From a virus: a stretch of DNA of 64,000 bases. The translations under genes and the position numbers were made by a program. Below the pieces are notes generated by a model. It ran no database searches. It saw nothing but the letters and a program-made list of their open reading frames with translations, and was not told where the DNA came from. Position 1 is the first letter of the stretch; the number at the start of each line of letters is the position of its first letter. Positions 194-57,636 of the stretch are shown here, piece after piece. The stretch covers positions 115,365 through 179,364 of IMG/VR virus record IMGVR_UViG_3300023202_000205. One strand, 5' to 3'.

Positions 194-517
194 CTAAATG
201 ATCGGATCGCTGAACTTGTTGAGCTGGTCCTTGTGCTCACGCACATACGTGAGGCACCGATTGAGGCGTGACACCCCGCGGTCATATCCGGCCGCGATTG
301 CCTCGGCAAATCCCTCGCGGTGGTCGCCGCTCAAGATGAGAAAGTACTCCATCTGCCCGAGCACGAGCGCGGTGGTCACGTCGCCGTAGATATACGTGTC
401 GTGACTATTATAGGAGATATACCAGTGCTTGCTCCCGGTATCGACCTCGTCGGTCCGGTTGGGAACAGTGCACGGCATCCCTTCGATAACAGCCATATAA
501 GCTGAGCTACGTTTCAT
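194..517 (-). CDS. hypothetical phage protein
   Basis: 107-aa ORF on the dominant coding strand; palindromic operator just upstream. Confidence 0.6.
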   Translation of the reverse strand: MKRSSAYMAVIEGMPCTVPNRTDEVDTGSKHWYISYNSHDTYIYGDVTTALVLGQMEYFLILSGDHREGFAEAIAAGYDRGVSRLNRCLTYVREHKDQLNKFSDPII

Positions 518-555
518 GCTACCTTATCTTTCTTTTATCCGTCTATTAGTGAATA

Positions 556-571
556 GTGTTCACGCGAACAC
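556..571. promoter_or_regulatory. palindromic operator GTGTTC-ACGC-GAACAC (TGTTC-N4-GAACA, LexA-box-like)
   Basis: arms extend to atagtgttc...gaacactat; intergenic, upstream of ORF 194..517; motif recurs 5 times. Confidence 0.7.
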
Positions 572-573
572 TA

Positions 574-954
574 TTACTCGTGGTGACTCTCGATCACTCG
601 ACGAGACGCTTCGACCCAGTTATCTATGGCCTCTCGCATCTCCTGGCGGACCTCACTCAGCACCTCAGCGTGTTGGTCGTCATCCCCCTCAGAAACCACG
701 TCCGCAATCCGACGTGTTAGTAATACGTCGAACAACCCTACGTGGTCCCGCAAGAACCGAGCACACCCGAGGGCGGCCTGGTCCAGCTGCTCGGCACTCT
801 GCTGGGTTGCACCGTGGTACGCCTCCGCGTCGAGCTCAGCAGCTCGATGAGGATCTCCTTCTGATGGCATTTGTAGCTCCAAGTAAGGTAAGTGGTTAGG
901 TGTTTCCGTCATCAAATAAATCAAGGACCAGGCTCTGGATCTTTTCACGGACAT
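574..954 (-). CDS. hypothetical protein
   Basis: ORF with GGAGG 6 nt before ATG at 954 (track start 1011). Confidence 0.55.
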   Translation of the reverse strand: MSVKRSRAWSLIYLMTETPNHLPYLELQMPSEGDPHRAAELDAEAYHGATQQSAEQLDQAALGCARFLRDHVGLFDVLLTRRIADVVSEGDDDQHAEVLSEVRQEMREAIDNWVEASRRVIESHHE

Positions 955-1201
955 CCCGCGCCTCCGGAAGTGGTTCCGGTTCCCCCAACTGGTTGTGTGG
1001 TGCTGTCGCAAACTCCCATAGAATTAACAACCTCTCACGGAGGTCCTCTGAGTACTGCTCCTGATTCTCCAAACAATCCTGTAACCGCTCTATCTCCTGA
1101 GCAGCTTGCACCATCTGCTGACAGCAGATGTCTCGTTCCCAGGGCTCTCCGTCAGTCGCTCCGAGACCTACTGACGCCCGTAGTTTCTGTACTAGACTCA
1201 C
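896..1201 (-). CDS. hypothetical protein
   Basis: 101-aa ORF, overlaps upstream ORF by 4 nt. Confidence 0.6.
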   Translation of the reverse strand: MSLVQKLRASVGLGATDGEPWERDICCQQMVQAAQEIERLQDCLENQEQYSEDLRERLLILWEFATAPHNQLGEPEPLPEARDVREKIQSLVLDLFDDGNT

Positions 1202-10372: not shown

Positions 10373-10408
10373 GTCACAGATACCAAGCCGCTGAACGGGC
10401 ATAGCGAG
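10373..10408 (-). CRISPR. solitary CRISPR repeat (34/36 match to array repeat)
   Basis: gtcacagataccaagccgctgaacgggcatagcgag; no neighbouring repeat. Confidence 0.9.
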
Positions 10409-14048: not shown

Positions 14049-14109
14049 GTCGCAGATACCAAGCCTCTAATCGGGCATAGCGAGAGGGCTCTTATAACTC
14101 GGCCAAGGG
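14049..14109 (-). CRISPR. solitary CRISPR repeat (33/36, 14049..14084) with leader-proximal segment
   Basis: gtcgcagataccaagcctctaatcgggcatagcgag followed by agggctcttataactcggccaaggg (21/25 match to array-2 leader). Confidence 0.92.
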
Positions 14110-16892: not shown

Positions 16893-18104
16893 TTACTCGT
16901 CTGATTCCTCAGGTAACTTGTCCAACTCCTTTTGGAGCCAGATCAGAACGGCCTCCGCTGCGTCGAGTGTATTCGACGAAGGATCGACGTCAGCCAGCAG
17001 CTCGCGAACGGTGGGCATCGAGATAGCCACCTCGTTGATTCGTTGCATCAACGTCTCGTGGTCTGGCTCATCGCCTTCTTTGGGAATCAGGGAACTGATC
17101 CCACCCATCAAGGTGGTAATCAGCTTACGCTGCCCTGTGGGGAACGAATCAGTCGAAATGACCGTCGCCTCTACATCCCTTCGCACTTCGTCATCGTCGA
17201 GTTTCATGCGCAAAAACTCTGAGCAGCTCACGAGGAGCTGGACGATATCGACGTTTTCGAAGTTCTCACCTGCTTCAGGGTTCTCCTCGAGAAACTCGTC
17301 CATCTTCTGATCAAACCGGGGTAGGCGGATACGGGCCAATTTGATGCCTTCCCGCATCTTATCCTCGAGCTCCTCCCTGGTCTCCTTGTCCTTGCCATTG
17401 TTCGTGAGCTTACCGTGCTCAGACAGATCTGCTTCGAACATGGTCACGACTTCTTCGATCTTCTCCCGCTCTTTGTCCGATAAGGCGATGGAGCTACTCA
17501 CCTGCTCTTCCAGTTCGGCACGCTCCACGTGGAACGGAGGGGCGTAGGGAAGGATGACAGCCATACCGAACTCCCGTAACCACAGGGTCTTGGACCCCTC
17601 CGTCCCGATATAGTGCTCCCCATCATCGAAACCAATGGCTTGGTAGGACTGTCGACCAACCTTGGCAAAGGCACATTTGATGTCCCCGTCGATGTGGAAC
17701 CCCACATTCTCCCAGAGGAACAGATCGTTGGCTCGAGTTACCAGCGCGCAATTAGTGGCGTAAGACGCCAGTGTCTGCCCAACCACGAACCGGAGCAGAT
17801 TCAGCTGTGTATCATCACTCAGGTTGTTGAAGGCCTTCTCCAGCTCGTTCAGAGCAGCCTTCTCCTTCGTGCTCTGCTTGAGATGAGCCAGAGCTGCCTC
17901 GAAGACATTGCAGGCCACGTTAGCAACGTTGTCGTCGACCAGCTCAGCTGGGTTCTTGGTGGCCCGATCCATATTGACCAGCCAGTTCAGTAGCTGGGTC
18001 CGGGAGGCAGCTGCCTCGTCTCGGTACTCGTCGGGCATTTCCTCAAACGCCTGTTCGGCACTAGCTTTGAGCCGCTCTTCGTATTTCTCGTGTTGTGCTG
18101 TCAT
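16893..18104 (-). CDS. acidic hypothetical protein
   Basis: 403-aa ORF. Confidence 0.75.
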   Translation of the reverse strand: MTAQHEKYEERLKASAEQAFEEMPDEYRDEAAASRTQLLNWLVNMDRATKNPAELVDDNVANVACNVFEAALAHLKQSTKEKAALNELEKAFNNLSDDTQLNLLRFVVGQTLASYATNCALVTRANDLFLWENVGFHIDGDIKCAFAKVGRQSYQAIGFDDGEHYIGTEGSKTLWLREFGMAVILPYAPPFHVERAELEEQVSSSIALSDKEREKIEEVVTMFEADLSEHGKLTNNGKDKETREELEDKMREGIKLARIRLPRFDQKMDEFLEENPEAGENFENVDIVQLLVSCSEFLRMKLDDDEVRRDVEATVISTDSFPTGQRKLITTLMGGISSLIPKEGDEPDHETLMQRINEVAISMPTVRELLADVDPSSNTLDAAEAVLIWLQKELDKLPEESDE

Positions 18105-18162
18105 GTGGTCCCTCTGCTGATGCTGAACATTAGCTCAGATAGTGTGTTACGCAAGATGCCCC

Positions 18163-18537
18163 TCACTCAATCACGTGTGGGTGCGGGGCCTGTGGGTTGA
18201 GCCTCCCAGGTTTGATCAGGTCAGAGTGCTGGATACGCAGGGAGAAAAACTCTCGGTCAGCATTGGCGATTACCGCTGGCGACCCCTGGAAGTGCAGTAC
18301 CCGTGGGTTCGTCTGATTGCTGAATGTGATGTCGACGTGGTTGGCCGACATATCCAGGCAGTACCACCGAAACGAGTGGCCCCCAAAAGTACTGACCAAT
18401 AAGTCATGTAACGGGTAGCTCTCCTCTTTGCTCTTGGTGAATGCCTCGGCAACACGGTGGGCGATGTGAACCGTTAGGGATGCCCGTACGATAAGTGCCT
18501 CAAAGCGCCCAGCTGCGGTAACGATGACGTTGGACAT
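18163..18537 (-). CDS. hypothetical protein
   Basis: 124 aa, abuts ruvA stop. Confidence 0.55.
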   Translation of the reverse strand: MSNVIVTAAGRFEALIVRASLTVHIAHRVAEAFTKSKEESYPLHDLLVSTFGGHSFRWYCLDMSANHVDITFSNQTNPRVLHFQGSPAVIANADREFFSLRIQHSDLIKPGRLNPQAPHPHVIE

Positions 18538-19198: not shown

Positions 19199-19861
19199 TC
19201 AGGTGAGAACCCTTTTTTTGGAAATAGGATCAGATAATGGTATAAATTCATGAACCCGCCAAGGGTATTTTGTCCCAAACTCTGACTGGAACCACTGCTT
19301 CCAGCGGTCCACTGGATACCCAATATTTTGATTGAGAACACCATGATGGGTTTCCATGACGAAAGACATAGACGAACCTAATATGTCGATACACCGCGCG
19401 TCGTCGATAAGAACCCGCTCCCCACCTTCACAGTCGAGCTTCACTATAGTGCCTGATCCGACACTGGTCCCTGCGTCCGCAAGCAACTCAGGCAATGGAA
19501 GGCTCTCTATAGTCCCTTCCTCATCGTCAACCATGGCAACTGCACCAGACGTACGAATATTTTTGTTAGGGACTGCCCTCACTTGTTTTCCGGTACCGAG
19601 CGCTTTGTTAATGCAGGTAGTCTGAAACCCCCGTGTATTTTGGACTAGGCCGTTAAAGGTAGTCGGGTTCGGTTCGAAACAGAAGATCTCAGCATGAGGA
19701 AATAGACAGCGGGCGTAGATACTGAAAAGCCCATAGTTGGCACCGATATCGATAATGCGATCGACTGGGCGGTCGAAGAATTTTCGCAGTCGATAAAGAT
19801 CGGCCGTGATTATTTCTTGAAATATCAAAGGAAAGTATTTTTCGAAGTTATCGCAGATCAT
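19199..19861 (-). CDS. FkbM-family SAM-dependent methyltransferase
   Basis: IIDIGANYG, FCFEPNP, VKLDCEGGE. Confidence 0.88.
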   Translation of the reverse strand: MICDNFEKYFPLIFQEIITADLYRLRKFFDRPVDRIIDIGANYGLFSIYARCLFPHAEIFCFEPNPTTFNGLVQNTRGFQTTCINKALGTGKQVRAVPNKNIRTSGAVAMVDDEEGTIESLPLPELLADAGTSVGSGTIVKLDCEGGERVLIDDARCIDILGSSMSFVMETHHGVLNQNIGYPVDRWKQWFQSEFGTKYPWRVHEFIPLSDPISKKRVLT

Positions 19862-49586: not shown

Positions 49587-49689
49587 GGAGCCTCCTATGT
49601 GTGTCTATTTTTGCATAATTTATACATCCTGTCACAGATATGTTATTCAGTCGGTAGCCGATACCCGGCCTCTATCAGTCAGTCAGTCA

Positions 49690-50273
49690 GCCACAAATAC
49701 CAAGCCTCTGAGCGGGCATAGCGAGAGTGCGCAGCTTCCCGCTTCTCCCCGATCACATCCGGGTCACAGATACCAAGCCTCTGAGCGGGCATAGCGAGAG
49801 GAGGTCTGGCCGGCTTTACCGCGAGATCGTGGTGACGTCACAGATACCAAGCCTCTGAGCGGGCATAGCGGGAGACGCCCTGCATGTTGCTCGTCACAGA
49901 TACCAAGCCTCTGAGCGGGCATAGCGAGTATCAGCGGTTCATAGGCTGATTCCCGTGATGGCGAGTCACAGATACCAAGCCTCTGAGCGGGCATAGCGAG
50001 CGGCGGTAACCTACGCTGGCGTCACAGATACCAAGCCTCTGAGCGGGCATAGCGAGAACAGGATACTGTAGACGACCTCTTTCGTCACCGCTCGGGTCAC
50101 AGATACCAAGCCTCTGAGCGGGCATAGCGAGAAACTGCGGCCGGTGCTGGCAAATGCCCATCCTGTGTCACAGATACCAAGCCTCTGAGCGGGCATAGCG
50201 AGTCCCACCACGCCCGGCAGACCGAGTGCACGCATGCGTCACAGATACCAAGCCTCTGAGCGGGCATAGCGAG
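49690..50273 (-). CRISPR. CRISPR array 1: 9 repeats, 8 spacers
   Basis: 36-bp repeat CTCGCTATGCCCGCTCAGAGGCTTGGTATCTGTGAC (minus) at 49690 (degenerate), 49763, 49837, 49893, 49965, 50021, 50096, 50167, 50238; spacers 37,38,20,36,20,39,35,35. Confidence 0.98.
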
Positions 50274-50445
50274 AGGGCCTTTATAATTCGGTTCATGGAA
50301 CCGTGTTATATCGCTATCCGCGAGAGCCCTCATCTCAGCTGATCCTAGCACCCTTTAGATCACTGCAATATCTCCACCTAAACCATTATCATCAAAGAAC
50401 ATCGAGTGCCTCCCGTAATTTCAGAACCAAGAAGGCGCTCGAAAC
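50274..50445 (-). promoter_or_regulatory. CRISPR leader 1 (172 bp)
   Basis: noncoding, abuts repeat, about 94 percent identical to 57465..57636. Confidence 0.9.
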
Positions 50446-50448
50446 TAC

Positions 50449-51090
50449 TCAGGAGGCCTTCCTACGCTTGGCGCTCTTCTTCTTCTTAACCGGCGGGATT
50501 GCTTTGGCAATCTCGCGCTGTAGCTGGCGTGCAACCTGGGGAGGTATCTCCCCTTTTGCGACGGCCTCTTTGATGACATCCACCACTATCGGCCACGGCA
50601 TCCAATAACCTCTGTACCGGATACCACGTTCTTTATCCGGTACGATAGCCGAGTAGACAGATCTCTTGGTGGCAGGTTTCTTTACCCGCTCCTCTGTGGA
50701 GTCGAGGTAGGTTCTCAGCTCCTCGAGACTGACGTCTGATAGACTCTTATCCTCGATAACGCGTGTTTCGAGGACCCTTTTTCGACGATCATTGTTCCTC
50801 GAGTTGATAAACACCCGCTGCTTCTCAGGGGGTAGGAGCAGCAAATGGGTGTCGAGGTCATGCTCCGCAATCTCGAGCAATGAGTCGAAGAAGTTCGAGT
50901 CACCCATCCCTTCCTGAATTAACCGTATTTTGAGCTTACGCCCAAACCGGTCATGGTACTTCTTGTATTTGTTAGCCAGCGAACGAAAGGCTAGTTTCCC
51001 GCTTTCGTAGCTAGCTAGCAACTCCCTGATAGCAGAGAGGAAGGAGGGGGAATCCCCTCCCCCGGCAACGGCCGTTTTCGTTTTGGGCAT
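50449..51090 (-). CDS. uncharacterised basic protein between cas12m and array 1 (candidate accessory)
   Basis: 213 aa, starts 10 nt after cas12m stop, AAGGAG RBS, ends 3 nt before leader. Confidence 0.75.
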   Translation of the reverse strand: MPKTKTAVAGGGDSPSFLSAIRELLASYESGKLAFRSLANKYKKYHDRFGRKLKIRLIQEGMGDSNFFDSLLEIAEHDLDTHLLLLPPEKQRVFINSRNNDRRKRVLETRVIEDKSLSDVSLEELRTYLDSTEERVKKPATKRSVYSAIVPDKERGIRYRGYWMPWPIVVDVIKEAVAKGEIPPQVARQLQREIAKAIPPVKKKKSAKRRKAS

Positions 51091-51100
51091 CTCATTCTCC

Positions 51101-52981
51101 TTAGGTGGTAACCTTTTCTGACTTCTTAGACTTCTTGGACTTCTTCGATTTCTTGGACTTCTTGGACTTCTTAGCCTTTTTAGCTTTCTTAGGCTCCTTC
51201 TTCTCTTCCGTACCGTTACTTTTCTTACTTTTTCGAACTTCCCCCTTGCTACGGGCAGCAGAGATGTCCACGCTATCCGTCAGCTGAGTACGGAGCATAA
51301 GTCTCAGCATTTTGCCAGTATTACGACGTTTGATAAACTCGTCAAAATCTTTCTGAGAGAGAAATCGTCGTAACAGGTTCAGCACACGGCTGTAATCCCC
51401 GCTCACCCCACAATCGCAGGGCCTCTCCTTAGTACAGTTGCCGCAGGTTTTTGCGATACCGCAAGGATTGACTTCTACGCAGGTCATAGCCTTTTTAAGT
51501 GTTTCCTCGAGATACGACACCGCCGCCAACCTCCTGTATTGGTCAGATGCCTCATCTCCGGGAGACTTACGCTCCTTGGTTCTGGAATCAGCATACCTGG
51601 CGAAGTCTGTCCAGTGGATATCGGGTATCACCACTGTGTCGTAAGTCCTCGACAACTTGGCCGCGAACTTGCGGTAGAGATCCAAGCGGTGCTCTTGAAT
51701 GTGTAACCGCTGGTTAGACGCATATTCCAGTAAGTGTTTGTCCTGAACCCTCCACTTCTCAGCTGTCACATACGCATGCTTGTCCCCTTTCCATCTGTTG
51801 TCCTTCCACTTCCAGATGACGGCTGCCAGCTGAGCTTCCGACCTCCAGTGGAAAATGGACTTCGTTGCTTCTTGGATCCACTCGGGGCCCTTGCGGAAGA
51901 ACTTGTCGAGTCGTTTACAGGTTTTATTGAACTCTTTGCGCCTGATGGATTGGAGATCTTCTTCATTATCTTTGAAGTTGATGTACTTATTCTCAAGTAG
52001 GAGATGCCCGAAATCACCATCTTCTCCAGCATAGGTTGCGACCCGTATACCGTCGTCCTGAACGGCCCACCCAGGCATTACAGCAACAACTCCGTGTCCT
52101 TTCTCCCGCTTTTCCAAAGCAGACCAGTCGTCGGTAGATAGGACCAGCTGAAGACTCCACTTCAGATTAGTACCCACCTTCTTTCCAACCAGTCGAGCAT
52201 ATTTGACCTGAGCACCGCGCGGGACGTCACGGTGAAGCTTGGTACGGAAGTTCAACCAAACGGGCTCTTTACCCACACTCCCGATCCGTATCCGGCTCAT
52301 ACGCCAACGGTCCCCACTGGTGGGGCACCTTTCGTCGTTTACTTGCAGGAGTCGGCTGATCCGCTTACCGCTACCATCGAAAGCGTCGTAGAAGTTACCC
52401 CCGTTCTGTACCTGTACGGTGATGCTGTCCTCACCGCGATAACGAACGAACTCGGGGGGAGCTCCCGATTTGTCATCTACGCGAGATTGTGAAATCGCGT
52501 TCTTGAGATGCCAGAACAGGCTGCTTTCGTTATAAAGAGCCTTACACTTTTGCCTGAACTCATCCTCGAGCTTACTCTGACACTTCTCCCATTTCTTGGT
52601 AGGGTAGCACTTCTTCTTTTTGAATTCACTGAGTTTCCTATACTTACCATTTCTGAGCTGTTTGGCTTTCTTGATCTGCTCCTTAAGGAGCTTGTCGATC
52701 TCACGCGTCCTCAGTTTGGCACGCTGCTTTCTGGAAAGATCGATGAGGCTATCAACCTCTTTTTCGGCTTCCTCAACGTCTTTTAAGAGGGGGATGATAG
52801 CTGGAAATAGTTGGCGAAGCTTGTCATGGATAGCCGTCCTCCGCTCTCTTTCGATAGCTACAAGACTATTCCTGTAATGGTTCATTTCTCGGAAGATAGC
52901 TATCGCTTCCTCCTCATCTTCTTTAAACAACTTAGCCCCGAATTTATAAACCTTCGAAGGCTTGCTATCTCGCCCAAACAT
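51101..52981 (-). CDS. cas12m: type V-M (V-U1) CRISPR effector Cas12m-like, RuvC-inactivated, Lys-rich C-terminal tail
   Basis: MFG....VYKFG start, RNSLVAIE, LFW, F.RYRG..SITVQ, RIRIGS....PVW...LHR.VP, W.S..QLA...WK, R.DLYR.FAA; RuvC-I VAVMPGW (D to M), RuvC-II VVIPD, RuvC-III GDY...NL; flanked by arrays. Confidence 0.88.
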   Translation of the reverse strand: MFGRDSKPSKVYKFGAKLFKEDEEEAIAIFREMNHYRNSLVAIERERRTAIHDKLRQLFPAIIPLLKDVEEAEKEVDSLIDLSRKQRAKLRTREIDKLLKEQIKKAKQLRNGKYRKLSEFKKKKCYPTKKWEKCQSKLEDEFRQKCKALYNESSLFWHLKNAISQSRVDDKSGAPPEFVRYRGEDSITVQVQNGGNFYDAFDGSGKRISRLLQVNDERCPTSGDRWRMSRIRIGSVGKEPVWLNFRTKLHRDVPRGAQVKYARLVGKKVGTNLKWSLQLVLSTDDWSALEKREKGHGVVAVMPGWAVQDDGIRVATYAGEDGDFGHLLLENKYINFKDNEEDLQSIRRKEFNKTCKRLDKFFRKGPEWIQEATKSIFHWRSEAQLAAVIWKWKDNRWKGDKHAYVTAEKWRVQDKHLLEYASNQRLHIQEHRLDLYRKFAAKLSRTYDTVVIPDIHWTDFARYADSRTKERKSPGDEASDQYRRLAAVSYLEETLKKAMTCVEVNPCGIAKTCGNCTKERPCDCGVSGDYSRVLNLLRRFLSQKDFDEFIKRRNTGKMLRLMLRTQLTDSVDISAARSKGEVRKSKKSNGTEEKKEPKKAKKAKKSKKSKKSKKSKKSKKSEKVTT

Positions 52982-53070: not shown

Positions 53071-53106
53071 GTCGCAGATACCAAGCCTCTGAGCGGGCAT
53101 AGCAAG
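53071..53106 (-). CRISPR. solitary CRISPR repeat (34/36) upstream of cas12m
   Basis: gtcgcagataccaagcctctgagcgggcatagcaag, 89 nt before cas12m ATG; partial copy gtcaacagatac at 53059..53070. Confidence 0.92.
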
Positions 53107-53120
53107 GCCACCTGGCCATC

Positions 53121-53153
53121 AAAATAGGGGACGCTGTACCTAACGTCCCCTAT
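53121..53153 (-). terminator. intrinsic terminator
   Basis: ataggggacg-(10 nt)-cgtcccctat stem with U tract on minus strand, after stop of 53173 ORF. Confidence 0.7.
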
Positions 53154-54808: not shown

Positions 54809-56611
54809 ATGGCGGTCGCGGCTCCTACGAAGCTGGAAGAGACACTCAAGGAAGTGCGAAACCGGGCCGTCAAAAATGGTGCTTCGCTTGCTCCAGCACT
54901 TCCCCTCATACTCCAACTGAGGGGGCAGCCCTACTCACTGAACTGGTCTCACTTCATGTTTGAGCCCATGTTCAAGTTTATAGGTATGCCTCGTCGAATG
55001 ATGTTGCTTTGTGGCCGCCAGGTCTCCAAAAGCACCTCGATGGCAGCTAGTCAGATACTCCGGGCAGCTATCCAGCCCAACTACAACATCCTTACCGTAA
55101 TGCCGCTTTACGAGCAGGTTCGCAAATTCAGCCAAAACTATGTGCGCCCTTTCATAACGACGAGTGGGGTAAGGAATCGTCTGGTCAGTGAACTGGGAAC
55201 GGACTCGGTCCTTCAACGGCAGATAGGGCCACTACAACACAACAGTTCCTTGTTCTACAGCTACAGTTCTGGCGACCCCAACCGTGTCCGTGGTATCCCT
55301 GCAGACGAAACCGACTTTGACGAGATCCAGGATTTGGACCACGCTGACCTCCCGATCATTGAATCGTGTATGGGTGCTTCGCGGTTCAAGATTGTTCGAC
55401 TAACGGGAACCCCTAAGACGTTTGACAACACGGCCAACCTGCTCTGGGAAGATAGCTCCCAGGCACATTGGCACATCCCCTGTTGTTGTGGCAAAGAGAA
55501 TAAAGCTGCCGTTGATGGTGATCTAATTCAGATGATCGGAGATGGTGGTAAACGACCGGATGGCTCTGTGCGTACACTGATCTGCGCTAACTGTGGCCGA
55601 GACCTCAATAGCCGCATTGGGTATTATGTCCACGACTACCCAGATCGCCGGTCGATCTTTCCCGGCTATCACGCCCCTCAGCCTATCCTCCCCATGCACT
55701 ATGAGTCGCCGCCGGACTGGCATGTCATCTTGGAAACGATGCATGAGAAGGCGACTTACATCTTCTACAACGAGGTCCTCGGAGAGTCCTATGATGCGGG
55801 CTCAAAGGTCATCACCTACGAGGAGCTGCATAAGGCAGCGCAGGTAACACCTTGTGAGCCGAAGGACATGCTGCCTTCTCGGTACATTGCTACTATGGTC
55901 GGGATCGACTGGGGTGGTCGTGGTAAGGAAAAGACGTCCGATACCGACGACTTTATCTCGAACACCGCCTTTGCCGTAGCAGGAATGCGGTCCGACGGTG
56001 TCATAGAGATACCCTGGCTTCACAAAGTACCCTATGTGGTAGATATGAGCCACGAGTCACATATGGCCGTCAACGTAGCTGCTAGCAGTAGGTCGGACTA
56101 CATCGCGATGGATTATGGCGGTCAGGGAAATGTGCAGGAACAGCAAGTGCGTGCCTGGGGATGGCCAGCGGAACGGGTGGTTCCGTTTACTTACGCGGTG
56201 ATGGCGCCAACACGCCCCGTAGTCTACTACAACCCTCCGAAACACCGTGGTGTCCGATCCAGTTATACACTGGATAAGCCCAGGAGTATCTTGCTCCTAG
56301 CAGAGCTCCTTAAGAGAGGGTTAGTGTTACTCCCCAACTCAGATAAATACCTGAAAGACCACCTGCGTGACTTCCTCAACATCTATGAAGAGAGTATCGA
56401 GAACCCCTCCGGCTCACCTCGTCGACTCATCAAACGGATGAGTCGACGCACTGACGACGTCGTCCACGCAATCAATTTTGCCGTAATGGGCCTCTTCCAT
56501 TACACAAATAGCTGGCCTAAGATCGCCGATTCATTTGTCGAGCAGGCCATCTCGCAGATACCTTCTTCTGTCACAGATACCAAGCCTTTGAGCGGGCATA
56601 GCGCGGGATGA
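54809..56611 (+). CDS. terL: terminase large subunit, GpA-like
   Basis: GRQVSKST Walker A, RVRGI.AD...FDEIQD, GTPKT, CCCG/CANC zinc module, FYNEVLGESY, GIDWG nuclease motif. Confidence 0.85.
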   Translation: MAVAAPTKLEETLKEVRNRAVKNGASLAPALPLILQLRGQPYSLNWSHFMFEPMFKFIGMPRRMMLLCGRQVSKSTSMAASQILRAAIQPNYNILTVMPLYEQVRKFSQNYVRPFITTSGVRNRLVSELGTDSVLQRQIGPLQHNSSLFYSYSSGDPNRVRGIPADETDFDEIQDLDHADLPIIESCMGASRFKIVRLTGTPKTFDNTANLLWEDSSQAHWHIPCCCGKENKAAVDGDLIQMIGDGGKRPDGSVRTLICANCGRDLNSRIGYYVHDYPDRRSIFPGYHAPQPILPMHYESPPDWHVILETMHEKATYIFYNEVLGESYDAGSKVITYEELHKAAQVTPCEPKDMLPSRYIATMVGIDWGGRGKEKTSDTDDFISNTAFAVAGMRSDGVIEIPWLHKVPYVVDMSHESHMAVNVAASSRSDYIAMDYGGQGNVQEQQVRAWGWPAERVVPFTYAVMAPTRPVVYYNPPKHRGVRSSYTLDKPRSILLLAELLKRGLVLLPNSDKYLKDHLRDFLNIYEESIENPSGSPRRLIKRMSRRTDDVVHAINFAVMGLFHYTNSWPKIADSFVEQAISQIPSSVTDTKPLSGHSAG

Positions 56612-57464
56612 TGACGGCCCCTCAGTCACAGATACCAAGCCTCTGAGCGGGCATAGCGAGGCGGCCATGACCCCGAGGAACAGCCGTGGCCCTCCGAGTC
56701 ACAGATACCAAGCCTCTGAGCGGGCATAGCGAGCCGATTGCGATGGGGTGGACCCGGTCTCTTTCGAGTTGTCACAGATACCAAGCCTCTGAGCGGGCAT
56801 AGCGGGGGCCTTGCTACCGGGTTTCCCTTCAGACTACCCTTCGGTCACAGATACCAAGCCTCTGAGCGGGCATAGCGAGACCATAGCCACCTCGGCAAGG
56901 CCCTGGATACCGCCGCGTCACAGATACCAAGCCTCTGAGCGGGCATAGCGAGCGCTTTTGGATCGCCTGGCGTACGCCCTGCTTCTGGTCACAGATACCA
57001 AGCCTCTGAGCGGGCATAGCGAGGGCGCTCTCACACAGCGAGGAGCAGAGCCATGGCCACACTGTCACAGATACCAAGCCTCTGAGCGGGCATAGCGAGT
57101 GCCATCGAATCCCCGGTAGCGGACACCGTTCACTTGCGTCACAGATACCAAGCCTCTGAGCGGGCATAGCGAGACAACTGTTGGCGGCGAGCACGACCGG
57201 ATGCCCAGGGTCACAGATACCAAGCCTCTGAGCGGGCATAGCGGGAGCTCGGCCGCCTCGGATTGGGTCAGTAGATGATCATGTCACAGATACCAAGCCT
57301 CTGAGCGGGCATAGCGAGTTCTCGTCGTCGGTACGCTCGCCACGGAGCGCCGCCGTCACAGATACCAAGCCTCTGAGCGGGCATAGCGAGTGCGACACCT
57401 TTCGCGGCACCGTGGCCAGCGAGATCTAGTCACAGATACCAAGCCTCTGAGCGGGCATAGCGAG
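56570..57464 (-). CRISPR. CRISPR array 2: 13 repeats, 12 spacers
   Basis: repeats at 56570 (degenerate), 56625, 56698, 56771, 56844, 56917, 56988, 57064, 57138, 57210, 57283, 57355, 57429; spacers 19,37,37,37,37,35,40,38,36,37,36,38. Confidence 0.98.
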
Positions 57465-57636
57465 AGGGCCTTTATAACTCGGCTCAGGGAACCGTGTTAT
57501 ATCGCTCTCTGCGAGCGCCCTCATCTCAGCTGATCCTAGCACCTCTTAGATCACTGCAATATCTCCATCTAAACCATTATCAGCAAAGAACATCGAGCGC
57601 CTCCCGTAATTTCAGAACCAAGAAGGCGCTCGAAAC
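57465..57636 (-). promoter_or_regulatory. CRISPR leader 2 (172 bp)
   Basis: 11 mismatches to leader 1 by manual alignment. Confidence 0.9.

Follow-up and report, generated by a model that had tools for sequence, protein, structure and literature searches.

The 626-aa protein P0001, encoded by an uncultured phage, is by its sequence and predicted fold a member of the Cas12m family (type V-M) and not a transposon TnpB, and its RuvC site, as judged from alignment, has lost catalysis, with M302, P453 and D529 at the three triad positions. Together with its CRISPR arrays, P0001 probably acts as a crRNA-guided DNA-binding silencer against competing or host DNA, a reading to which we assign a probability of about 75%; we infer that the system binds and silences DNA and processes its RNA, and we likewise infer its PAM and its biological target. 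What is rare here is the phage setting and not the dead RuvC: among 50,697 phage records, a single phage-borne relative of P0001 was found, and it is distant, whereas non-canonical RuvC triads occur in 52 of 162 Cas12m-family sequences.

The effector and its genomic setting

The cas12m gene (51101..52981, minus strand) lies in the window, by which we mean the whole stretch of 64,000 nt that was analyzed, and the window belongs to a virus record in IMG/VR that measures 179,364 bp and is rated 96% complete. Exactly one open reading frame occupies these positions; it starts with ATG, with AAGGAG eight bases before it, and its product shares the N-terminus MFGR.SKPS with its homologues. An earlier note on this DNA had described the effector as phage-borne, and the virus record, its completeness and the adjoining large terminase gene bear this out. 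The gene is present in a single copy, and the phage genome yielded no match to TniQ and, at its 96% completeness, none to Cas1, Cas2 or Cas4.

Among PDB sequences, phmmer matched P0001 to a protein named 'Cas12m' (23vw_A; E=2.3e-40, residues 21-498), to GoCas12m (8pm4; E=9e-8) and to Cas12m2 (8hio; E=3e-7), and tblastn matched it to the Cas12m locus of an M. silvanus plasmid at 5e-32. The AlphaFold (AF2) model of P0001 (mean pLDDT 89.7, pTM 0.82) has Cas12m2 (8hhl; TM 0.69/0.73) and GoCas12m (8pm4; TM 0.71/0.73) as its top PDB folds, while Cas12f, TnpB and other Cas12 proteins reach TM 0.2-0.59 only. The similarity to Cas12m proposed in the earlier note is thus supported by both sequence and predicted fold. 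The WED pair H269/R270 of Cas12m2, which touches the crRNA 3' handle (PMC10442227), aligns with H250/R251 of P0001, and these residues are invariant or nearly so. The P0001 family comprises 2745 representatives at E<=1e-3. Since Pfam, PHROGs and NCBIfam give no match for P0001, routine annotation would overlook it.

Some relatives of P0001 contain the TnpB-type zinc-ribbon domain PF07282, and relatives are labeled 'transposase' in GenBank, as would suit a protein that is no CRISPR effector but the TnpB of a transposon or a homing factor of the CAST type (Cas12k). This identity is extremely improbable, being disfavored by the fold (TM 0.3-0.59 to TnpB structures versus ~0.7 to Cas12m), by the CRISPR arrays with a matching handle that adjoin cas12m, by the failure to find tniQ and by the single gene copy; the grouping with TnpB that the earlier note had weighed against its own assignment is therefore not what we observe.

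Residues 580-626 (51104..51244, minus strand) form a Lys/Ser-rich C-terminal tail that is predicted to be disordered (pLDDT <50) and is encoded by DNA with a 9-nt period (repeat family D2). A Lys-rich C-terminus is also seen in the consensus of the P0001 clade, and P0002 likewise has a long Lys-rich C-terminal tail.

Between cas12m and array 1 lies orf213 (P0163; 50449..51090, minus strand), for which we found no family match, no homologues, no recognizable domain and no informative Atlas matches. The ORF at the corresponding position of metagenome locus L010 resembles it weakly (E=7e-5), and L010, a 1.3-kb fragment, provides the sole view of a close relative's neighborhood. This shared position, as well as the fact that the sole self match of the spacers (described below) adjoins a sigma-factor gene, could suggest that P0001 and orf213 jointly act as an activator or recruiter that is guided by RNA, in the manner of dCas12f with sigma-E, and not as a roadblock. 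However, the similarity of orf213 is weak, the protein has no recognizable domain and a sigma gene linked to cas12m is absent, and we regard such an activator as very unlikely.

The RuvC site and its conservation

The canonical D-E-D triad is absent from P0001. Alignment of its segment 'VAVMPGW' with 'AAIDLGW' of 23vw and 'VAVDIGW' of relatives places Met302 (codon 52076..52078, minus strand) at the position of the RuvC-I catalytic Asp, and alignment of 'VVIPDIHW' with 'IVLEEF' and 'VIEDIDW' places Pro453 (51623..51625, minus strand) at that of the RuvC-II catalytic Glu. The RuvC-III Asp is kept as Asp529 (51395..51397, minus strand), by alignment of 'SGDYSRVLNLL' with 'DQDANACRNLL', and D529 is nearly invariant in alignments A1 and A3. 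The zinc finger (C513-x2-C516...C522-x-C524; 51410..51445, minus strand) retains all four Cys, and in the D-E-D relatives the loop between the Cys pairs is longer by ~11 residues.

Both substitutions, the shortened zinc finger and the inactivation of RuvC, with two of the three catalytic positions non-polar, had been claimed in the earlier note, and all are recovered here. The note's emphasis on the dead RuvC holds for the substitutions, but these are less diagnostic than it supposed, because D-E-D, H-D-D and N-D-D Cas12m proteins also bind DNA without cutting it (PMC11013384); a dead RuvC is unsurprising in P0001, since the tested Cas12m proteins already do not cut. The retention of Asp529 and the disordered Lys/Ser tail were missing from that note.

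P0001, P0016, P0002 and P0003 form a clade of four with the triad M-P-D (T-P-D), which has a support of 0.99 and is nested inside D-E-D relatives. Identity among its members is only ~40%, and the retention of the same substitutions over such distances indicates long-term selection. A search of GTDB genomes gave no relative of the M-P-D clade, and in IMG/VR neither the protein nor the repeat pattern turned up a relative.

CRISPR arrays, guides and proposed mode of action

The phage genome contains 33 repeats of 36 nt, all on the cas12m strand, which are arranged in arrays of 5, 9 and 13 repeats and six solitary copies. Array 1 (49690..50273, minus strand) consists of 9 repeats and 8 spacers (20-39 nt) and has a degenerate terminal repeat at its low-coordinate end, and array 2 (56570..57464, minus strand) consists of 13 repeats and 12 spacers (19-40 nt), with a terminal degenerate repeat over the 3' end of terL; the array of 5 repeats is located outside the 64,000-nt window. 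Such degenerate repeats stand at the leader-distal end of the arrays. A leader of ~172 nt, defined by alignment of five leader copies, is common to all three arrays and is found at 50274..50446 for array 1 and at 57465..57636 for array 2 (both minus strand).

Relative to the consensus, 28 of the 33 repeat copies have 0-2 mismatches, and the five others, all solitary, have 3-5. The repeat scan of the window placed solitary copies on the minus strand at 10373..10408 (2 mismatches), at 14049..14084 (with ~25 nt of leader) and at 53071..53106, 89 nt upstream of the cas12m ATG and directly after a terminator-like hairpin (53121-53151). A scan for promoters and terminators gave counts not above those in shuffled sequence.

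Stems at -28..-26/-17..-15 and -23..-20/-6..-3 give the repeat a predicted two-stem pseudoknot handle, and the same stem positions have been given for the PmCas12m crRNA (bioRxiv 10.64898/2026.03.26.714355). The fold is supported by covariation across four loci, where 89.8% of cells are paired and 5 of 7 pairs are altered on both sides, as compared with 14-51% paired in slid controls. None of 500 shuffles reached the covariation score, the percentage paired, the cells changed on both sides or the pair types, whereas the number of pairs altered on both sides was reached in 3 of 500. Co-oriented arrays and a repeat that folds like a Cas12m crRNA fit the RNA-guided role proposed in the earlier note. 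No reverse-complement (tracrRNA-like) copy of the repeat with <=5 mismatches was found in the phage genome, and Rfam has no family for the repeat or the leader.

This material also bears on whether the P0001 locus is what is left of a Cas12m nuclease locus that is decaying and no longer functions, as the loss of two catalytic residues, the shortened zinc-finger loop, the irregular spacer lengths (19-40 nt) and the lack of adaptation genes in the phage might suggest. We consider decay highly improbable: the 626-aa ORF is intact and has a high-confidence predicted fold, the substitutions are retained across the ~40%-identical clade, the zinc-finger Cys and H250/R251 are kept, most repeats (28/33) are within 0-2 bases of the consensus, and Cas12m function needs no nuclease activity (PMC11013384).

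The spacers have a GC content of 63.2%, whereas that of the genome is 54.4% and random samples of the genome reached 59.3% at most; by GC, the spacers look foreign to the phage. The spacer at 57174..57209 (minus strand) has an external protospacer in the same metagenome, which showed itself in runs X1 and X3 through loose ends at positions 57178 and 57210 and is flanked by DNA not present in the phage genome. Its guide-sense flank is CATCTTC (5'-TTC), and the PAM reading depends on this single site, the only external protospacer found. Exact matches to the protospacer were absent from IMG/VR and from GTDB genomes, and a comparison of the arrays with the phage collection gave no match.

Another spacer (57319..57354, minus strand), the second from the leader in array 2, is identical at 36 of 36 positions to the phage's own genome at 19251-19286, where the guide-sense flank is GAGTTGGC, with GGC at -3..-1 and TTG at -6..-4. 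The contexts of the spacer and of genome positions 19251-19286 are both present in runs X1 and X2. Among the public runs listed as containing this DNA, none was an RNA run. The self protospacer lies 65-100 nt into a 218-aa ORF (orf218), which has no homologues and no informative Atlas matches; orf218 shares bases with the end of a sigma-70-like gene and is followed by a baseplate-like gene.

It is possible, if unlikely, that the system chiefly regulates the phage's own genes, with Cas12m binding repeat handles in phage transcripts, the leader of its own mRNA among them, and the self crRNA blocking transcription within the operon downstream of the sigma-factor gene. In its favor, the six solitary repeats are co-oriented with genes and conserve the 3' half of the handle while the 5' end is degenerate, one of them occupies the position upstream of cas12m after the terminator-like hairpin, and the self match is perfect and near the sigma-70-like gene. 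The self-matching guide has the sense of the mRNA, and therefore would pair with the template strand. However, PAMs in all tested Cas12m proteins are pyrimidine-rich, and the self protospacer may go unbound because its flank is GGC. In addition, the solitary-repeat loci show the repeat end GAC at the PAM position, the guides that follow solitary repeats have seed matches elsewhere in the phage genome at the level of shuffled guides, and the self match could stem from targeting near-identical relatives. For all guides taken together, 16-nt seed matches to the phage genome are likewise not more common than for shuffled guides. We are still more doubtful of a gene-control network in which the dead Cas12m would combine handles in the 5' regions of six transcripts (cas12m included) with the self crRNA; if it were true, one protein would time or limit phage gene expression, and it would also serve the arrays against competitors.

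For the silencer directed against competing or host DNA, which we prefer, the following mode of action can be proposed. The three arrays would be transcribed on the minus strand from their common leaders, and the 36-nt repeat would form a Cas12m-type pseudoknot handle in the transcript, which P0001, like its relatives, would trim without the help of RuvC to the handle and a guide of ~17-20 nt (Cas12m pre-crRNA processing needs no RuvC; PMC11013384, PMC10442227). The complex would bind dsDNA beside a 5' PAM that is rich in pyrimidines (probably TTC or TTN) and would remain bound, so that transcription or replication is blocked without a cut. Its main targets would be foreign DNA in the infected cell, namely that of competing phages or of plasmids, or the chromosome of the host. 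Because the phage has no adaptation genes, new spacers would come from host machinery or recombination. The role suggested in the earlier note, repression guided by RNA in competition between MGEs or in control of the host, is compatible with the evidence. The self-matching spacer and the six solitary repeats are not accounted for by a purely anti-foreign role.

Significance and comparison with known systems

Cas12m is a natural CRISPRi protein, compact and tightly binding, that is used in base and epigenome editing. P0001, a predicted nuclease-dead single-crRNA binder of 626 aa, could serve as a scaffold for such tools. It also represents a natural experiment, in which two hydrophobic residues stand in place of metal ligands in a protein under selection, and it can therefore be argued that the chemistry of the RuvC pocket is dispensable for the function of the family. 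As one of very few phage Cas12m genes, it is an unusual, phage-borne form of a system already known, and it offers clues to usage beyond the case of MvCas12m: an external protospacer from the same sample, a self match, and solitary repeats before phage genes.

Compared with characterized type V-M proteins (MmCas12m2, 8hhl/8hio; GoCas12m, 8pm4; MsCas12m; PmCas12m; PMC10442227, PMC11013384, bioRxiv 10.64898/2026.03.26.714355), P0001 is alike in fold and size class, and its system is alike in the crRNA pseudoknot ending in ...GAC, the WED His-Arg pair and the lack of adaptation genes; by analogy, PAM-dependent binding without cleavage would be expected of P0001 too. The triads described for Cas12m clades are HEK/HQK, HDD, DED/NED, DND and NDD, whereas that of P0001 is M-P-D and thus has two positions unable to bind metal. 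P0001 further differs by its shorter zinc-finger loop and its Lys/Ser-rich tail of ~47 aa, and while those systems reside on plasmids or chromosomes, that of P0001 belongs to a phage of 179 kb whose genome has three arrays besides six solitary repeats.

The closest parallels in setting are MvCas12m of myxophage MV-1, which has the triad D305/E463/D555 and which a September 2026 preprint terms the first phage case, reporting no protospacers for its array (bioRxiv 10.64898/2026.09.14.751636), and an unannotated Cas12m gene in Virus Rctr197k (KX853510), which has a canonical D-E-D triad and a basic C-terminal tail. As with P0001, the host replicon of Cas12m is a large phage that lacks cas1, cas2 and cas4, and a CRISPR array adjoins the gene, but both of these proteins keep D-E-D where P0001 has M-P-D. 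Rctr197k has a second, unrelated CRISPR array besides that of Cas12m.

Among more distant systems, the phage-encoded, TnpB-like TldR belongs, as does P0001, to the TnpB/Cas12 lineage and, as P0001 would by analogy, binds DNA under the guidance of RNA with a dead RuvC. TldR represses by DNA occupancy, using one fixed guide beside its gene against a host promoter (bioRxiv 10.1101/2023.11.30.569447; PMC13418256), and is TnpB-sized, whereas P0001 has 626 aa, a Cas12m fold and three arrays with 24 spacers. Virus-encoded mini-arrays and solitary repeat units (PMC11656645) share with the present system phage arrays without adaptation genes and a spacer with a match in the phage itself or in a relative almost identical to it, as in competition between viruses. 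Such mini-arrays borrow the effector of the host (PMC11656645), whereas the phage described here carries its own.

Identity and carrier of the phage Cas12m

The cas12m gene is a single 626-aa ORF (window 51101-52981, minus strand), preceded by a good ribosome-binding site and present in one copy in the phage genome. Its product, P0001, shares the N-terminus MFGR.SKPS with its homologues and has no match in Pfam, PHROGs or NCBIfam. Among sequences of solved structures, it matches a 577-aa Cas12m (23vw_A, E=2.3e-40, residues 21-498), GoCas12m (8pm4, 9e-8) and Cas12m2 (8hio, 3e-7), and with tblastn the characterised Cas12m locus on an M. silvanus plasmid is hit at 5e-32, as are further plasmid copies. 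An exhaustive HMMER search yielded 2745 cluster representatives at E<=1e-3; thus the family is large in metagenomes. The folds closest to an AlphaFold model of P0001 (built from 88 sequences; mean pLDDT 89.7, pTM 0.82) are Cas12m2 (TM 0.69/0.73) and GoCas12m (TM 0.71/0.73), whereas Cas12f, TnpB and the remaining Cas12 types reach only 0.2-0.59. By its sequence and predicted fold P0001 is a Cas12m, as the earlier note had proposed. A grouping with transposon TnpB, which by that note would have refuted the proposal, is not observed since Cas12m structures fit better than those of Cas12f, TnpB and other Cas12 types; a reading of the gene as a transposon component is unlikely.

The phage-borne nature of the gene is borne out by its carrier, a single IMG/VR virus record of 179,364 bp with a completeness rating of 96%; the window makes up its final 64 kb, and the large terminase gene is 1.8 kb from cas12m. 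Known terminases share at most about 26% identity with this one, which sets the phage far apart from all cultured ones. No cas1, cas2, cas4 or tniQ was found in the phage genome. A cluster of seven tRNAs (Gln x2, Ser, Pro, Asn, Arg, Thr) occupies genome positions 97549-98404 on the minus strand (17549-18404 of the phage stretch L005).

Substitutions in the RuvC site and their evolution

Triad residues were assigned from the HMMER alignment to 23vw and three multiple alignments, which uphold both substitutions claimed earlier: Met302 stands at the RuvC-I Asp position ('VAVMPGW' vs 'AAIDLGW' in 23vw) and Pro453 at the RuvC-II Glu position ('VVIPDIHW' vs 'IVLEEF'). The RuvC-III Asp is retained as D529, giving the triad M-P-D. 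The zinc finger is shortened, as had been noticed: all four Cys (513, 516, 522, 524) are present, and the loop between the Cys pairs is about 11 residues shorter. Residues 580-626 are modeled as a disordered Lys/Ser-rich tail. The tail-coding DNA is a 9-nt periodic repeat (window 51095-51208) in which slippage could alter length; a long Lys-rich tail also occurs in the metagenomic homologue P0002, and the basic C-terminus is shorter in the Cas12m of Virus Rctr197k.

The D-E-D triad is found in 110 of 162 family members, the others carrying N-A-D, N-E-D, N-D-D, H-A-D, H-P-D, L-P-S and further variants. In the FastTree phylogeny, P0001 forms a clade (support 0.99) with the metagenomic homologues P0016 and P0002 (both M-P-D) and P0003 (T-P-D). 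The sister group is made up of L-P-S and D-R-R sequences. Both groups are nested inside D-E-D relatives, so the loss of these RuvC residues is derived. Sequences of the M-P-D/T-P-D clade that are only about 40% identical keep this loss, which argues against recent decay and leaves a reading of P0001 as a decaying nuclease unlikely.

A 1.3-kb metagenome fragment (L010) encodes a close relative whose RuvC-II position is likewise Pro and whose zinc finger is equally short; behind it come an ORF (467-1165, plus strand) with weak similarity to orf213 (E=7e-5) and then an array. In the phage, orf213 (window 50449-51090, minus strand), which has no detectable family, lies between cas12m and array 1; the order cas12m, orfX, array may therefore typify the clade, and on sequence grounds orf213 may be a clade-specific accessory gene.

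Repeats, arrays and the predicted crRNA

The 36-nt repeat occurs in 33 copies in the genome, all on the plus strand as scanned: nine in array 1 (window 49690-50273), 13 in array 2 (56570-57464), five in an array detected beyond the window by the repeat scan, and six solitary, of which three are within the window (10373, 14049, 53071). Each of the three arrays has a conserved leader of ~172 nt beyond its high-coordinate end and a degenerate terminal repeat at its low-coordinate end; this polarity places the reading direction of the arrays on the minus strand, the strand of cas12m. The local minus-strand order is solitary repeat, cas12m, orf213, leader, array 1. The degenerate repeat of array 2 overlaps the final 14 codons (56570-56611) of the large-terminase ORF, which runs convergently (54809-56611, plus strand). 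The array trailer at 49672-49689 reads TGACTGACTGACTGA on the transcribed strand, with stops in all three frames right after the last repeat; (GTCA)n-like runs also follow, on the low-coordinate flank, two leader-bearing solitary repeats (genome 105721 and 129413, the latter window 14049).

The minus-strand repeat ends in GUGAC and is able to fold into stems at -28..-26/-17..-15 and -23..-20/-6..-3, the same positions as reported for the crRNA of PmCas12m (N-D-D). In that crRNA a repeat part of about 33 nt precedes a guide of about 17 nt, and the PAM of PmCas12m is 5'-YTN (bioRxiv 10.64898/2026.03.26.714355). Across the repeats beside family members at four independent loci (the phage, L010, a further metagenome locus L009 and Virus Rctr197k), stem I reads GCC/GGC, GGG/CCC, CCC/GGG and AGA/UCU. 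Over both stems, 89.8% of cells pair and five of seven pairs change on both sides; 0/500 shuffles attain the covariation score, and slid controls are 14-51% paired. This signal for the pseudoknot fold is consistent, though in a small sample of four loci. In Cas12m2 the 3' end of the handle is read by a WED His-Arg pair, which is kept here as H250/R251.

The solitary repeats retain the handle half and show degeneration at the 5' end alone, which in relatives is trimmed off by processing, and one of them is flanked by a terminator-like hairpin on one side and the start of cas12m on the other. These features would suit regulation of the phage's own genes through Cas12m, which in its broad form we nevertheless consider rather improbable. 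The 'guides' downstream of the solitary repeats find targets in the phage genome no more often than by chance, so that any such role of these repeats would be at the RNA level. A reading of P0001 as an activator is also unlikely.

Spacers, targets and comparison with known systems

The 24 array spacers have a mean GC of 63.2% (phage, 54.4%), above all 2000 random phage-genome samples (top mean 59.3%); the majority must therefore derive from DNA that is richer in GC. Arrays 1 and 2 have no match in the phage collection. Spacer lengths span 19-40 nt. Three spacers have only 19-20 nt (window 49873-49892, 50001-50020, 56606-56624) and the others 30-40 nt, perhaps through truncation or a second mode of spacer gain; the short ones are long enough for a 17-20-nt guide.

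The locus was compared with Logan contigs from three metagenomes of one study. In runs X1 and X3, the spacer at 57174-57209 is extended on both sides into unrelated sequence; other DNA from the same samples therefore carries a protospacer for it (34/36 positions). Nothing in the phage genome corresponds to the sequence around this protospacer, and IMG/VR and GTDB species genomes give no exact match. The protospacer's 5' flank, in guide sense, is CATCTTC, and this 5'-TTC fits the T-rich PAMs of tested Cas12m.

The spacer at 57319-57354, second from the leader in array 2, is identical (36/36) to phage genome positions 19251-19286, and both its array and genomic contexts are seen in X1 and X2. 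It falls 65-100 nt inside an acidic ORF of 218 aa that is upstream of a baseplate-like gene, and the guide is mRNA-sense. This ORF is mostly disordered and has a 14-nt overlap with the end of a sigma-70-like gene (regions 3 and 4), in the region at genome 18695-20190 (4696-6190 of the phage stretch L007, minus strand). The self protospacer flank is GAGTTGGC, with GGC at -3..-1, whereas the PAMs of Cas12m proteins tested so far are rich in T or C; this genomic site may thus not offer a PAM that the protein can use. The array itself has GAC at the PAM position. Both protospacers have C at -1, the last repeat base, a hint from two cases only.

We estimate a probability of roughly three in four that P0001 works as its family is known to, but from within a phage: guided by crRNA and dependent on a PAM, it would bind DNA, mostly of foreign origin, without cutting it. 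The self-identical spacer would most simply be a weapon against near-identical relatives, the phage's own copy being spared through its flank; virus mini-arrays show the same pattern of near-relative targeting (PMC11656645). The Cas12m-like phage effector with altered RuvC is confirmed as an observation, and its interpretation is supported.

Subtype V-M is enriched on plasmids and present in some prophages (PMC11656645). In 50,697 phage records, the only relative is that of Virus Rctr197k (KX853510, 197 kb), which is 25% identical, annotated as 'similar to transposase', adjoins a 1.5-kb array and, unlike P0001, keeps D-E-D. In this deposit of a partial genome (locus L012, KX853510.1 106579-120186) the gene is not annotated as Cas12m, and some 5 kb away, beside another 'transposase-like' gene, is a second array whose repeat is unrelated. 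A September 2026 preprint terms a myxophage Cas12m the first in a phage (10.64898/2026.09.14.751636); it too is D-E-D, in contrast to M-P-D. Cas12m clades on record have HEK/HQK, HDD, DED/NED and DND triads (PMC10442227). PAM-dependent DNA binding without cutting is described for D-E-D, H-D-D and N-D-D proteins alike, and pre-crRNA processing is independent of RuvC (PMC11013384). Since Cas12m with other triads are already non-cutting, the dead RuvC is an extreme of a known trend and not a new principle; new in P0001 are the M-P-D triad, the short zinc finger and the basic tail, in a kind of system that is already known but here has an unusual carrier.
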